Positions 1,224 to 47,481 of a DNA stretch of 64,000 bases are shown one piece after another. A program made the position numbers and the translations under genes. The notes under the pieces are model-generated. The model saw only the letters and a program-made list of their open reading frames with translations, did no database searches and was not told where the DNA came from. Every line of letters starts with the position of its first letter. The stretch's first letter is position 1. The stretch lies in assembly GCF_013122565.1 (NCBI RefSeq), contig NZ_CP053258.1; one strand, written 5' to 3'. Origin of the DNA: Escherichia coli (GTDB lineage Bacteria; Pseudomonadota; Gammaproteobacteria; Enterobacterales; Enterobacteriaceae).

Positions 1224-1608
1224 ATCGCACGTCTCTTCTCCTTGCGACACCGGCAGGACACCGGGCGCTTATGGTCGGCAAGCGACGTCCCTGTAGCAAG
1301 GCAAACCATCGCTTCACGTGAGATGCTGAAAACGAAAGCTCATCCTTCTGCACTGGCGCACGTCGCCAGAAAGTATTGTTAATAAAGCGTAGTGAAACTT
1401 TTGCACAAAACAATACAAACTGTGTGGATTTATCTTTTAGCGATAAAAATGGACCTATTTTTCTTTTTGCCGGGCGGTGGGGATGTTTAGCCAGTTGCTA
1501 AACAAGTAAAAGAGAAGGAATTCATGGTGATGAAATGATCAATCTGCTGTTATTTCACGCTATTAATGCACTTTTGGCTGTTTTTCAGGCAAACAAACAA
1601 ATTAGGGG

Positions 1609-1637
1609 TTTACACGCCGCATCGGGATGTTTATAGT
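1609..1637 (+). promoter_or_regulatory. Putative sigma70 promoter of serT (TTTACA-17 nt-TATAGT, GC-rich discriminator)
   Basis: TTTACA at 1609-1614, TATAGT at 1632-1637, then GCGCGTC just before the tRNA 5' end. Confidence 0.5.
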
Positions 1638-1649
1638 GCGCGTCATTCC

Positions 1650-1737
1650 GGAAGTGTGGCCGAGCGGTTGAAGGCACCGGTCTTGAAAACCGGCGACCCG
1701 AAAGGGTTCCAGAGTTCGAATCTCTGCGCTTCCGCCA
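1650..1737 (+). tRNA. serT: tRNA-Ser (anticodon UGA), 88 nt with long variable arm
   Basis: GGAAGTGTGGCCGAGCGG...GGTTCCAGAGTTCGAATCTCTGCGCTTCCGCCA; anticodon loop CTTGAAA; T-loop GTTCGAATC. Confidence 0.95.
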
Positions 1738-1747
1738 AATAAGATAA

Positions 1748-1779
1748 GGGGTTAGCTAAATGCTAACCCCTTTTTCTTT
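1748..1779 (+). terminator. Rho-independent terminator after serT
   Basis: Stem GGGGTTAGC / GCTAACCCC, loop TAAAT, followed by TTTTTCTTTT. Confidence 0.75.
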
Positions 1780-1943
1780 TGCCTGTCTAAATTCTCAGGG
1801 CGTTATATTTGCTTAATGACCTGATAATCCGCTGTTAAACCTGTTCCAGATCAAATGCGTAAAGATGGGTAAAACTTCTGGGTGCCCTTACGCATTATCA
1901 TTATGCTGCTTAATTAATTACATCTGTCATAGAGAGTGACTCA

Positions 1944-44391: not shown

Positions 44392-45792
44392 ATGAGCGTT
44401 GTGCCTGTAGCCGACGTACTCCAGGGCCGCGTAGCCGTTGACAGCGAAGTCACCGTACGCGGATGGGTACGTACCCGCCGAGATTCAAAAGCTGGCATCT
44501 CCTTCCTCGCCGTTTATGACGGTTCCTGCTTTGATCCTGTACAGGCTGTCATCAATAATTCTCTGCCCAATTACAATGAAGACGTCCTGCGTCTGACCAC
44601 CGGTTGCTCGGTCATTGTGACGGGTAAAGTCGTGGCGTCGCCGGGCCAGGGGCAACAATTTGAAATTCAGGCCAGCAAGGTTGAAGTTGCTGGTTGGGTT
44701 GAAGATCCAGACACTTACCCGATGGCGGCAAAACGCCACAGCATTGAGTATCTGCGTGAAGTCGCTCACCTGCGTCCGCGCACAAACCTGATTGGTGCCG
44801 TCGCGCGCGTTCGTCATACGCTGGCGCAGGCGCTGCATCGCTTCTTTAACGAGCAGGGATTCTTCTGGGTTTCAACGCCACTGATTACTGCGTCTGATAC
44901 CGAAGGTGCTGGCGAAATGTTCCGCGTTTCTACGCTGGATCTGGAAAACCTGCCGCGTAACGATCAGGGCAAAGTGGATTTCGACAAAGACTTCTTTGGT
45001 AAAGAGTCTTTCCTGACCGTATCTGGCCAGTTGAACGGCGAAACCTACGCTTGCGCATTGTCCAAAATTTATACCTTCGGCCCGACTTTCCGTGCTGAAA
45101 ACTCCAACACCAGCCGTCACCTGGCGGAATTCTGGATGCTGGAGCCGGAAGTGGCGTTTGCTAACCTGAACGATATCGCGGGTCTGGCTGAAGCCATGCT
45201 GAAATATGTCTTCAAAGCGGTTCTCGAAGAACGCGCAGACGACATGAAATTCTTCGCTGAACGCGTAGATAAAGATGCCGTTTCACGTCTGGAACGCTTC
45301 ATTGAGGCCGATTTCGCGCAGGTGGATTACACCGACGCAGTGACCATTCTCGAAAACTGCGGCAGGAAGTTTGAAAACCCGGTTTACTGGGGCGTCGATC
45401 TCTCTTCTGAGCATGAGCGTTATCTGGCGGAAGAACACTTTAAAGCACCGGTAGTGGTTAAAAACTATCCGAAAGATATTAAAGCGTTCTATATGCGCCT
45501 CAACGAAGACGGTAAAACCGTTGCGGCTATGGACGTTCTGGCTCCGGGCATCGGTGAGATCATTGGTGGCTCCCAGCGTGAAGAACGTCTGGACGTGCTG
45601 GACGAGCGTATGCTGGAAATGGGCCTGAATAAAGAAGATTACTGGTGGTATCGCGATCTGCGTCGCTACGGTACTGTTCCGCATTCAGGTTTCGGTCTTG
45701 GTTTTGAACGCCTGATTGCTTACGTAACTGGTGTGCAAAACGTGCGTGATGTGATTCCGTTCCCACGTACTCCGCGTAACGCCAGCTTCTAA
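44392..45792 (+). CDS. asnS: Asparaginyl-tRNA synthetase AsnS, 466 aa
   Basis: ORF 44347..45792 trimmed to [33 protein letters not shown]. Confidence 0.95.
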
Positions 45793-45804
45793 TTTAGCGT
45801 CTAC

Positions 45805-45832
45805 AAGAGCCAGCACCCGCTGGCTCTTTTTT
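45805..45832 (+). terminator. Rho-independent terminator after asnS
   Basis: Stem GAGCCAGC / GCTGGCTC, loop ACCC, followed by TTTTTT. Confidence 0.8.
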
Positions 45833-45903
45833 ATCCTTTCTGTCAAGTTATCTGTTTGTTAAGTCAAGCAATCTATTTGCAACCCCGCCATAACGATCAT
45901 CCT

Positions 45904-45933
45904 GTTACGGAATATTACATTGCAACATTTACG
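45904..45933 (+). promoter_or_regulatory. Distal OmpR-binding site (F4-like) upstream of ompF
   Basis: GTTACGGAATATTACATTGCAACATTTACG with repeated TTACG/ACATT units about 380 nt upstream of the expected ompF TSS. Confidence 0.55.
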
Positions 45934-46183
45934 CACAAAAAATAACCCGCATTCTTATTGCGGATTAGTTTTTTCTTAGCTGATAGCACAATTTTCATAC
46001 TATTTTTTGGCATTCTGGATGTCTGAAAGAAGATTTTGTGCCAGGTCGATAAAGTTTCCATCAGAAACAAAATTTCCGTTTAGTTAATTTAAATATAAGG
46101 AAATCATATAAATAGATAAAAATTGCTGTAAATATCATCACGCTTCTATGGAAATATGACGGTGTTCACAAAGTTCCTTAATT

Positions 46184-46248
46184 TTTACTTTTGGTTACAT
46201 ATTTTTTCTTTTTGAAACCAAATCTTTATATTTGTAGCACTTTCACGG
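46184..46248 (+). promoter_or_regulatory. Proximal OmpR-binding sites F1-F2-F3 and ompF promoter
   Basis: TTTACTTTTGGTTACATATTTTTTCTTTTTGAAACCAAATCTTTATATTTGTAGCACTTTCACGG, tandem GNNNC/ACATNT-like OmpR half-sites. Confidence 0.75.
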
Positions 46249-46392
46249 TAGCGAAACGTTAGTTTGAATGGAAAGATGCCTGCAGACACATAAAGACACC
46301 AAACTCTCATCAATAGTTCCGTAAATTTTTATTGACAGAACTTATTGACGGCAGTGGCAGGTGTCATAAAAAAACCATGAGGGTAATAAATA

Positions 46393-47481
46393 ATGATGAA
46401 GCGCAATATTCTGGCAGTGATCGTCCCTGCTCTGTTAGTAGCAGGTACTGCAAACGCTGCAGAAATCTATAACAAAGATGGCAACAAAGTAGATCTGTAC
46501 GGTAAAGCTGTCGGTCTGCATTATTTCTCCAAGGGTAACGGTGAAAACAGTTACGGTGGCAATGGCGACATGACCTATGCCCGTCTTGGTTTTAAAGGGG
46601 AAACTCAAATCAATTCCGATCTGACCGGTTATGGTCAGTGGGAATATAACTTCCAGGGTAACAACTCTGAAGGCGCTGACGCTCAAACTGGTAACAAAAC
46701 GCGTCTGGCATTCGCGGGTCTTAAATACGCTGACGTTGGTTCTTTCGATTACGGTCGTAACTACGGTGTGGTTTATGATGCACTGGGTTACACCGATATG
46801 CTGCCTGAGTTTGGCGGTGACACGGCATACAGCGATGACTTCTTCGTTGGTCGTGTTGGCGGCGTTGCTACCTATCGTAACTCCAACTTCTTTGGTCTGG
46901 TTGATGGCCTGAACTTCGCTGTTCAGTACCTGGGTAAAAACGAGCGTGACACTGCACGCCGCTCTAACGGCGACGGTGTTGGCGGTTCTATCAGCTACGA
47001 ATACGAAGGCTTTGGTATCGTTGGTGCTTATGGTGCAGCTGACCGTACCAACCTGCAAGAAGCTCAACCTCTTGGCAACGGTAAAAAAGCTGAACAGTGG
47101 GCTACTGGTCTGAAGTACGACGCGAACAACATCTACCTGGCAGCGAACTACGGTGAAACCCGTAACGCTACGCCGATCACTAATAAATTTACAAACACCA
47201 GCGGCTTCGCCAACAAAACGCAAGACGTTCTGTTAGTTGCGCAATACCAGTTCGATTTCGGTCTGCGTCCGTCCATCGCTTACACCAAATCTAAAGCGAA
47301 AGACGTAGAAGGTATCGGTGATGTTGATCTGGTGAACTACTTTGAAGTGGGCGCAACCTACTACTTCAACAAAAACATGTCCACCTATGTTGACTACATC
47401 ATCAACCAGATCGATTCTGACAACAAACTGGGCGTAGGTTCAGACGACACCGTTGCTGTGGGTATCGTTTACCAGTTCTAA
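46393..47481 (+). CDS. ompF: Outer membrane porin OmpF precursor, 362 aa
   Basis: ORF 46393..47481; signal [22 protein letters not shown]; C-terminal VYQF. Confidence 0.96.

Follow-up and report, generated by a model that had tools for sequence, protein, structure and literature searches.

The 600 bp spacer between asnS and ompF of Escherichia coli is an ordinary, mostly textbook region consisting of two textbook components, the intrinsic terminator of asnS and the upstream control region of ompF. Every part of it belongs to the textbook description except a second hairpin, located at 45937–45974 of the 64,000-nucleotide stretch of E. coli DNA analysed here (contig NZ_CP053258.1; the whole stretch is referred to as the window, and positions given without an accession are positions in it). 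Judged by its sequence, this hairpin is a genuine intrinsic-terminator-type element with the architecture of a bidirectional terminator, at which transcription could stop. Its anatomy could best be explained by the role of a low-traffic, two-way insulating terminator, a reading to which we give a probability of roughly 45%.

The spacer occupies positions 45793–46392 between asnS (44392–45792) and ompF (46393–47481), with pncB upstream and aspC downstream of the pair; the names asnS and ompF were taken from the RefSeq annotation of near-identical E. coli genomes. The locus is ~98% identical to that of K-12, from which the spacer differs by ~14 substitutions and two single-base indels. Among complete E. 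coli genomes, 5424 of 5426 carry a match to the spacer with 95–99% identity, and no feature is annotated under it in the matching genomes, K-12 MG1655 included. The plus strand of the window corresponds to the minus strand of K-12. Coordinates of K-12 were transferred to the window via locus L001, in which base 2972 corresponds to U00096.2 986694.

In the first-pass annotation of this DNA the spacer was described as the longest non-coding stretch of the window. This holds for stretches without any gene; the only larger gap without ORFs of at least 100 aa lies at 1251–1943, and the claim has to be limited in this way because that gap holds a tRNA-Ser gene. All the features listed in the annotation are present in the sequence, at the positions it gave or within a few bases of them. 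The identity of the spacer and its known parts (asnS terminator, F4, F1–F3, promoter and ~110-nt leader) are backed by public K-12 data, and the K-12 ompF regulatory region, which comprises F1–F3, F4, IHF, the promoter and the leader targeted by MicF, is the same locus. In the scanned region four terminator-like sites were detected, compared with 1.2 ± 1.1 in shuffled sequences.

The intrinsic terminator of asnS (45805–45832, plus strand) is formed by a stem at 45805–45828 and a T-run at 45827–45832, and it is identified by the scan, by folding and by SMRT-Cappable-seq. The stem is located 12 nt past the asnS stop codon, has 10 pairs (six of them G-C) and is followed by T6; its minimum free energy (MFE) is −17.8 kcal/mol (z = −6.9). 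According to the K-12 SMRT-Cappable-seq data, the asnS transcript ends at NC_000913.3 987544, the last T of the run (window ~45832), in agreement with the strong terminator proposed for this place from the sequence. In the same data 30 of 57 asnS reads stop at the terminator and 5 of 57 pass it. The read-through extension has a median of 66.5 nt, which brings it near the promoter located in F4 (described below); the second hairpin lies ~140 nt downstream of the terminator.

The proximal OmpR sites F1–F3 (46184–46245, plus strand) are strongly conserved, lie at −100 to −39 relative to the ompF start and include TTACTTTTGGTTAC at 46185–46198. The promoter follows at 46272–46284 on the same strand, with the −10 element AAAGAT at 46272–46277 and the start at A46284, 7 nt past the −10. 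The starts of ompF determined in K-12 by differential RNA-seq (U00096.2 986314–986318) and by SMRT-Cappable-seq (NC_000913.3 987092) both fall at window positions 46281–46285. The 5′ untranslated leader (46284–46392, plus strand; ATG at 46393) is near-invariant across families. The proximal OmpR array, the promoter and the leader of ~110 nt had thus been read correctly from the sequence, the K-12 starts giving a leader of 109 nt.

The distal OmpR-like site proposed at 45904–45933 is also present. It corresponds to F4, lies at −380 to −351 from the ompF start and contains TTACGGAATATTAC; the segment 45900–45933 is identical in the window and K-12, and the CTGTTAC...AACATTT of F4 is conserved across Enterobacteriaceae. 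Both F4 (45905–45918) and F1 (46185) carry TTAC-N6-TTAC on the plus strand, a pattern with six matches in the 64-kb window against 1.0 expected. The two sites fit the pattern of OmpR F-boxes, tandem 10-bp half-sites with (T)TTAC/AAC at 10-bp phasing and in the orientation of F1–F3, and binding of OmpR to them is predicted on this basis. F4, F1–F3, the −10, the start and the 109-nt leader are common to K-12 and the window, at the same distances. Binding of OmpR-P to F4 and F1–F3 in K-12 is taken from the literature (PMC3050692), in which F4 is a weak site ~260 bp upstream of F1–F3 that represses ompF by looping and Yersinia is reported without F4 (PMC3050692).

Further conserved blocks are located between the distal and proximal OmpR sites. 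Block ATAGCACA (45983–45990) is nearly invariant in 14 Enterobacteriaceae spacers, and block GGCAnTCTGGATGnCTAAA (46009–46028) is seen in the alignment of Enterobacteriaceae spacers. Block ATATAAGGAAATCATATAAATAG (46093–46115), which includes the IHF-like AATCATATAAATA and is centred at ~−180 from the ompF start, is conserved from Escherichia to Pantoea, Erwinia, Pectobacterium and Acerihabitans and is weaker in Serratia and Yersinia. A degenerate IHF pattern matches at 46102–46114, yet such a match taken alone is not above chance. The block at 46093–46115 may correspond to the IHF site of published footprints.

The second hairpin is composed of an A-run (45937–45942), two arms (45943–45951 and 45959–45967), a loop (45952–45958) and a T-run (45969–45974). 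The 5′ arm is TAACCCGCA, the 7-nt loop is TTCTTAT and the 3′ arm is TGCGGATTA, which is followed by G and then T6. The terminator scan scores it as terminator-like on both strands, with nine pairs plus TTTTTTGTGC on the minus strand and a 5-pair core on the plus strand. In the window, the minus-strand RNA forms nine pairs (four G-C and one G·U) followed by U6, and the plus-strand RNA contains a C·A mismatch and forms a 5-bp core, also followed by U6. This asymmetry arises because C45946 faces A45964, which gives C·A on the plus strand and G·U on the minus strand. The corresponding MFE values are −9.3 kcal/mol (plus) and −13.7 kcal/mol (minus), with z = −3.7 on either strand.

K-12 differs from the window in the hairpin itself: the window carries C instead of T at 45946, within the stem, and A instead of C at 45942. 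With T at 45946 and C at 45942, the K-12 sequence forms a perfect 10-bp stem of nearly equal energy on both strands (−20.2 kcal/mol on the plus and −19.7 kcal/mol on the minus strand, z of about −6.5 to −6.9). A repeat of 9–10 bp placed between an A-run and a T-run could therefore stop polymerase arriving from either direction. The weak stem-loop with a T-run recorded in the first-pass annotation at ~45947–45975 is consequently real but understated, as the full element is larger and its 9-bp repeat begins at 45943. It had also been viewed on the plus strand, where a hairpin does exist, but the window allele would make a better terminator on the minus strand.

Ju, Li and Liu (2019, as presented in PMC7815308) reported bidirectional terminators across the E. 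coli genome. The hairpin shares their architecture, the K-12 version having its perfect 10-bp stem between A5 and T6. It differs from them in its setting: bidirectional terminators are usually located between convergent genes and have 3′ ends mapped on both strands, whereas here the flanking genes are co-directional, the hairpin is part of a regulatory region and the tables of RNA ends consulted have no 3′ end for it.

The assignment of the hairpin to the structural class of terminators is supported by insertions of IS200C, which are found at its 3′ foot in two genomes, GF60 and 366_BP0076. In GF60 the element is inserted between ...GCGGATTAGTTTTTT and CTTAGCTG (45974|45975) and ompF is intact. 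In 366_BP0076 it is located 3 nt further (~45977|45978) and reaches with its other end to the T-run of the ompF terminator, ompF itself having been deleted; the two insertions at the hairpin T-run are independent. A search for the left end of IS200C gave 9299 places, spread over 2354 E. coli genomes. Eight places taken across the ranking came down to five different loci at which the junction could be read, following plaP, carB, a hypothetical gene, potE and gndA; at five of these five IS200C was located 0–4 nt past the T-run of a strong co-directional gene terminator. The element therefore seems to target the foot of terminators and to treat the hairpin as one of them. These sites bear on the structure at the DNA level and are silent on termination of RNA synthesis.

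A promoter on the minus strand is located inside F4, immediately beside the hairpin. In the Cappable-seq data of Ettwiller et al. (2016), obtained in minimal medium, the K-12 plus strand is covered, which corresponds to the minus strand of the window; a relative read score of 1.5 equals 20 reads. The start at U00096.2 986694 (+) has a score of 74.5 and an enrichment of 4.6, which makes it a strong one. It maps to window position 45905 on the minus strand and is the first A of CCGTAACAGG. The promoter core (45905–45917, minus strand) consists of the −10 element TAATAT (45917–45912), exactly 7 nt upstream of the start at A45905, and is identical in the window and K-12. The −35 region (TTTGTG/TTGTGC, ~45934–45940) is poor and extends into the T-run found past the hairpin on this strand, the hairpin itself lying at −38 to −62 relative to the 45905 start. 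This start was absent from the first-pass annotation.

An RNA antisense to the end of asnS (45733–45905, minus strand; ~173 nt, 174 in K-12) is delimited by this Cappable-seq 5′ end and by the Term-seq 3′ end NC_000913.3 987644 (+), which is labelled 'antisense asnS' and corresponds to window position 45733. The two ends presumably belong to one molecule. Such an RNA covers the final 60 nt of asnS together with its terminator; in K-12 the 3′ end follows a 7-bp stem (GTACGTG/CACGTAC) plus GUUUUG. It corresponds to a cis-antisense RNA with a 5′ end enriched as a triphosphate end, provided that the ends are joined as proposed. Its only ORF (AGGA-N8-ATG GCG ... TAA, 10–13 codons) is intact in all sampled E. 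coli and in E. albertii is devoid of the start codon and carries an in-frame stop; being conserved within E. coli only, this ORF was rejected as a protein gene.

The ~173-nt antisense RNA is probably identical to C0240, which is placed on the same strand of the same spacer; the 45905 start and the 45733 end fit an RNA of this kind. C0240 was reportedly first found by Tjaden et al. in 2002. In Stead et al. (2011), a transcript of the opposite strand between ompF and asnS is given as candidate 62, equated with C0240 and labelled a putative small ORF. The mapped antisense RNA departs from that label in that its sole ORF has 10–13 codons. The RNA was thus detected in 2002 and 2011, and no characterisation of it was found in the literature searched; a text search for an asnS antisense RNA or a named asnS–ompF RNA returned nothing relevant.

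The arrangement resembles, in general terms, that of micF and ompC, in which one OmpR-bound region is common to a porin gene and a divergent small RNA. Here too a porin gene has upstream OmpR sites, and an RNA gene is transcribed away from OmpR-bound DNA. Unlike micF, the divergent RNA has its start in F4, a weak repressing site, 379 bp upstream, and it bears no similarity to MicF (no Rfam match).

RNA ends in K-12 were compared with the hairpin on both strands. The Term-seq tables of Adams et al. (2021; K-12, three conditions, thresholded) contain no 3′ end for the hairpin, on the plus or the minus strand, and the SMRT-Cappable-seq tables, also thresholded, list no transcript end at it, giving only the asnS end and the start and end of ompF in this region. 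Three Term-seq 3′ ends are listed near the spacer: the ompF terminator, 986970 (window 46405), which is 12 nt into the ompF ORF, and 987644 (window 45733). Since thresholds were applied to the tables, and the asnS terminator itself is missing from the Term-seq lists, the negative result at the hairpin carries little weight. Minus-strand starts upstream of the hairpin are the stronger 986314 (score 22.9) and the weak 986345, 986373 and 986625; together with 986711 and 986744, the weak starts of the spacer have scores of 1.6–2.7 (all U00096.2, Cappable-seq).

The first-pass annotation had suggested the hairpin as the end of a short unannotated transcript. The K-12 data did not support this: 3′ ends at the hairpin are absent from the Term-seq and SMRT-Cappable-seq tables, and asnS read-through, with its median of 66.5 nt, mostly stops short of it. 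On the evolutionary side, no compensatory changes are seen and the hairpin is not stable outside Escherichia. Besides the asnS terminator and the ompF start, the spacer does contain a further transcript end, but it is the minus-strand 5′ end at 45905 and not a 3′ end at the hairpin.

In its strong form that suggestion assigns the hairpin, as a dedicated terminator, to a short RNA lacking annotation or to an mRNA for a small protein. Candidates are a minus-strand RNA of ~160 nt from 46132–46103 and a plus-strand RNA that starts after the asnS terminator. A minus-strand promoter-like site (TTTACA-18-TATGAT, 46132–46103), the weak Cappable-seq start at 986625, 7 nt before the hairpin, and the conserved blocks at 45983–45990 and 46009–46028, upstream of the hairpin on that strand, would agree with it. 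However, no Cappable-seq start is present at U00096.2 986400–986599 on that strand and the −35 of the 46132–46103 site is not conserved beyond Escherichia, and this site was rejected as the source of an RNA ending at the hairpin. For the plus strand, the scan gave no promoter-like site, and the Term-seq tables have no 3′ end for the hairpin.

Protein-coding and small-RNA candidates fare no better. The longest minus-strand ORF of the spacer (51 aa, 46070–45915) runs through the hairpin, contains stops in K-12 and TUM12368 and shows mostly non-synonymous changes; it was discarded as a protein gene, in line with the statement of the first-pass annotation that the spacer holds no convincing ORF. 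A permissive Rfam search of 45300–46900 gave nothing near a gathering score, the best hits being terminator-bearing families with 16–22 bits, the highest 22 bits against 55 needed. An Hfq-type small RNA gene ending at the hairpin was rejected as well, since no start maps to the promoter-like site, no Rfam family matches and conservation of the terminator is lacking. Of the rival explanations, termination dedicated to a short RNA or small-protein mRNA fares worst and is highly improbable.

The reading as a low-traffic insulator agrees better with the transcripts that surround the hairpin. Since the strong 986694 start lies just past the hairpin, the minus strand has a terminator-then-promoter layout. 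This layout, and the fact that plus-strand read-through is rare and mostly stops earlier, are the reasons why the insulator is favoured. Stray minus-strand transcripts originating in the A+T-rich control DNA of ompF would end at the hairpin before entering F4 and the promoter of the antisense RNA. Where the stem of an allele is perfect, residual asnS read-through could also be ended before the ompF control region. The window allele would accordingly act mainly on the minus strand and K-12-type alleles on both. The anatomy of the hairpin, its allele spectrum, its restriction to one lineage and the transcript ends around it are observed; that termination takes place there is inferred from the anatomy.

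The allele spectrum was assessed in 5412 E. coli genomes over 60 nt around the hairpin. The window haplotype occurs in 1851 of them and the K-12 haplotype in 1343, the remaining haplotypes differing by a few bases. This segment is at least as polymorphic as the whole spacer, with a mean difference from the window of ~3% compared with ~2.3% spacer-wide. In the sampled alleles the differences are confined to the 5′ arm and are transitions only, each leaving G·U on one strand. G·U on the minus strand only is produced by 45943 T>C (XJ34, E. albertii), 45946 T/C and 45949 G>A (E. albertii), and on the plus strand only by 45948 C>T (Nissle and other B2 strains) and by the change at 45942. At least five stem alleles exist in E. 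coli, most of them weaker in pairing on one strand, and a terminator-grade stem is kept on at least one strand in every E. coli allele seen. In E. albertii the minus-strand fold (−11.0) is favoured over the plus-strand fold (−3.8), and the plus-strand T-run is broken (GTAATTTC). The minus-strand G·U as opposed to the plus-strand C·A in the window, XJ34 and E. albertii is counted for the insulator, and the B2 allele, in which T at 45948 favours the plus strand, against it.

Beyond Escherichia the hairpin is not stable. Citrobacter and Phytobacter have weak hairpins at the homologous place, and in Pseudocitrobacter, Leclercia, Kluyvera, Enterobacter-like genomes, Mangrovibacter and Superficieibacter no stable hairpin is found on either strand; among the genera compared it is stable in Escherichia only. 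What is kept across genera as sequence is ACAAAAAATAA on the F4 side and the loop with the 3′ arm (CA-TCTTATTGCG). The A-run, which is the minus-strand T-run, is also conserved across genera, and the plus-strand T-run is not. In the 11-sequence alignment the minus strand has 87.9% of its cells paired, the plus strand 80.8%; double-sided changes number one on the minus strand and none on the plus strand, and pairing does not exceed that of shuffles on either. By this count of pairing and covariation, the minus-strand lean is real yet small and gives no evolutionary proof of an RNA structure. Conservation of the loop and the 3′ arm where stable pairing is absent, outside Escherichia, suggests selection on sequence rather than on structure.

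These data leave some room for a hairpin with no function of its own, a repeat of the Escherichia lineage formed from sequence conserved for other reasons (F4 with the A-run, TCTTATTGCG) and now drifting. Such an origin is consistent with stability in Escherichia only, the lack of covariation and of a mapped 3′ end, a loop and 3′ arm as conserved as the stem while the 5′ arm varies, the weakening of one strand by most of the stem alleles, and local diversity not below that of the spacer. Against it, a perfect 10-bp repeat with complementary A- and T-runs is improbable by chance, as the K-12 z values indicate, each E. coli allele retains a terminator-grade stem on one strand or both, and all stem changes are transitions of the kind that preserves G·U on one strand. 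A drifting repeat is therefore a possible but less probable explanation than the insulating terminator.

The same conservation without pairing, to which the loop (T22, T24, T25 and T27 in alignment A4) contributes, could reflect a role at the DNA level, as a palindromic site for a dimeric regulator or as an extension of the OmpR/F4 region or of an upstream element. The repeat adjoins F4 and the −35 region of the antisense promoter, with its centre at −50 relative to the 45905 start of the minus strand and at −329 relative to that of ompF. However, no known regulator motif was matched in a comparison by eye, the half-sites are not both conserved outside Escherichia, and the flanking A- and T-runs are needed by a terminator and not by a palindromic operator. 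A DNA-level role is thus unlikely, and the insulating terminator is preferred to it.

The hairpin belongs to a part of the spacer with a restricted distribution. A porin gene follows asnS in all 24 of the 24 Enterobacterales genomes examined. The spacer measures 544–618 bp in Enterobacteriaceae (786 bp in Superficieibacter) and only 245–321 bp in Pantoea, Erwinia, Brenneria, Pectobacterium, Serratia, Yersinia, Photorhabdus, Acerihabitans and Rosenbergiella. Short spacers contain, in order, the asnS stop, a conserved block (ATATAAGAAATTCATATAnATAA), the asnS terminator, TCACAAAGTTCC and F1–F3. In Enterobacteriaceae the asnS stop is followed directly by the terminator, then by ~265 bp with F4, the hairpin and two blocks, and then by the conserved block of the short spacers (here 46093–46115); no hairpin is left at the old terminator position. 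The distal ~300 bp of the spacer are specific to Enterobacteriaceae.

An origin of the distal 263 bp from a paralogue or a repeat family was rejected, as a sensitive search found this segment in single copy in 5424 E. coli genomes. The restriction of the distal part to Enterobacteriaceae agrees with the published absence of F4 in Yersinia (PMC3050692). The distal half being an addition specific to Enterobacteriaceae accounts for the lack of F4 in Yersinia and its relatives and for their different regulation of ompF.

A broader scheme could join these observations. In it, F4 would be both the OmpR looping site and the core promoter of the antisense RNA, with binding of OmpR-P and promoter firing mutually exclusive, the hairpin would be a shield, and the whole ~300-bp piece would have been acquired once. 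We consider this combination speculative and rather improbable. If it were true, repression of ompF would go along with an osmolarity-dependent shut-off of the antisense RNA, or occupancy by polymerase would set the filling of F4; the two-way hairpin would shield the F4 module from transcription on either side; and the terminator, F4 and hairpin would have been gained as one ~300-bp piece in the ancestor of Enterobacteriaceae.

The textbook view of ompF control is altered very little by this analysis, the terminator, four OmpR sites, promoter and leader being where they are expected. What is added is that the ompF control region holds an unannotated element of the bidirectional-terminator type, a very common class, right beside F4, and that a fairly strong promoter, which gives rise to an RNA antisense to asnS, overlaps F4. 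Mutations introduced into F4 for studies of ompF repression therefore also hit this promoter.

The distal ~265–300 bp of the asnS–ompF spacer (window 45833–46095), which comprises the distal OmpR site F4 (45904–45933), the second hairpin and two conserved blocks, is confined to Enterobacteriaceae according to a comparison with the short-spacer loci (L014–L024 and L072, bases 3902 to about 4200). The spacer is ~300 bp long in Pantoea, Erwinia, Pectobacterium, Serratia and Yersinia; in these genera the asnS terminator is located 3' of a conserved IHF-like block, and in E. coli it is located 5' of this block. No hairpin is left at the former terminator position in E. coli (about 46119–46150). The spacer of Superficieibacter electus (L025 3902–4687) reaches 786 bp, with ~190 bp extra directly 3' of asnS, including a second copy of a GCCAGC...GCTGGC terminator-like stem. 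In 14 Enterobacteriaceae spacers, the blocks ATAGCACA (window 45983–45990) and GGCAnTCTGGATGnCTAAA (46009–46028) are almost invariant, while the flanking DNA varies freely.

The T-run of the second hairpin (45969–45974) has been hit by IS200C in two independent insertions. The junction is located at 2547/2548 of the GF60 locus L091 (window 45974|45975) and at 2687/2688 of the 366_BP0076 locus L090 (window about 45977|45978). In 366_BP0076, a urine isolate carrying an ompF deletion, the element connects this point with the ompF terminator's T-run. Since IS200C lies 0–4 nt 3' of a gene-terminator T-run at all five other sampled loci (5/5; L092–L099), a target preference of this element for terminator feet is suggested.

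A search among E. coli assemblies revealed four plasmid records matching the spacer (45793–46392). The asnS–ompF intergenic region serves as a strain- or host-informative marker in microbial source tracking (PMC5007776, PMC11267920). The sole longer ORF-free gap in the window (1251–1943) holds a tRNA-Ser gene (anticodon tga, 1650–1737).

Two further transcript ends of K-12 fall near the ompF start. A minus-strand start opposite ompF (Cappable-seq score 22.9; U00096.2 986314, window 46285) practically coincides in coordinate with the ompF start and is directed away from ompF, through the proximal OmpR sites F1–F3. The sequence shows no clear promoter at this start; the signal could represent genuine divergent initiation or an artefact of the method. 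On the plus strand, Term-seq gives a strong 3' end at K-12 986970 (window ~46405), 12 nt inside the ompF ORF, which implies a ~120-nt RNA consisting of the ompF leader. This RNA is possibly formed by MicF-linked cleavage or by premature termination.

The strongly used minus-strand start at window 45905 (Cappable-seq, K-12; score 74.5) is located within F4, with its −10 element at 45912–45917. Term-seq in K-12 also detects a minus-strand 3' end inside asnS, and we infer that both ends belong to one ~173-nt RNA (45905 to 45733), whose span is antisense to the asnS terminator and the asnS 3' end. It is probably 'C0240', itself uncharacterised. Read-through of asnS past its terminator in K-12 has a median extension of 66.5 nt (only 5 reads; end zone ~45832–45900, plus strand), indicating from these few reads that it stops near the F4-embedded antisense promoter and not at the second hairpin. 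The F4 mutations used in studies of ompF repression would also strike the antisense promoter.
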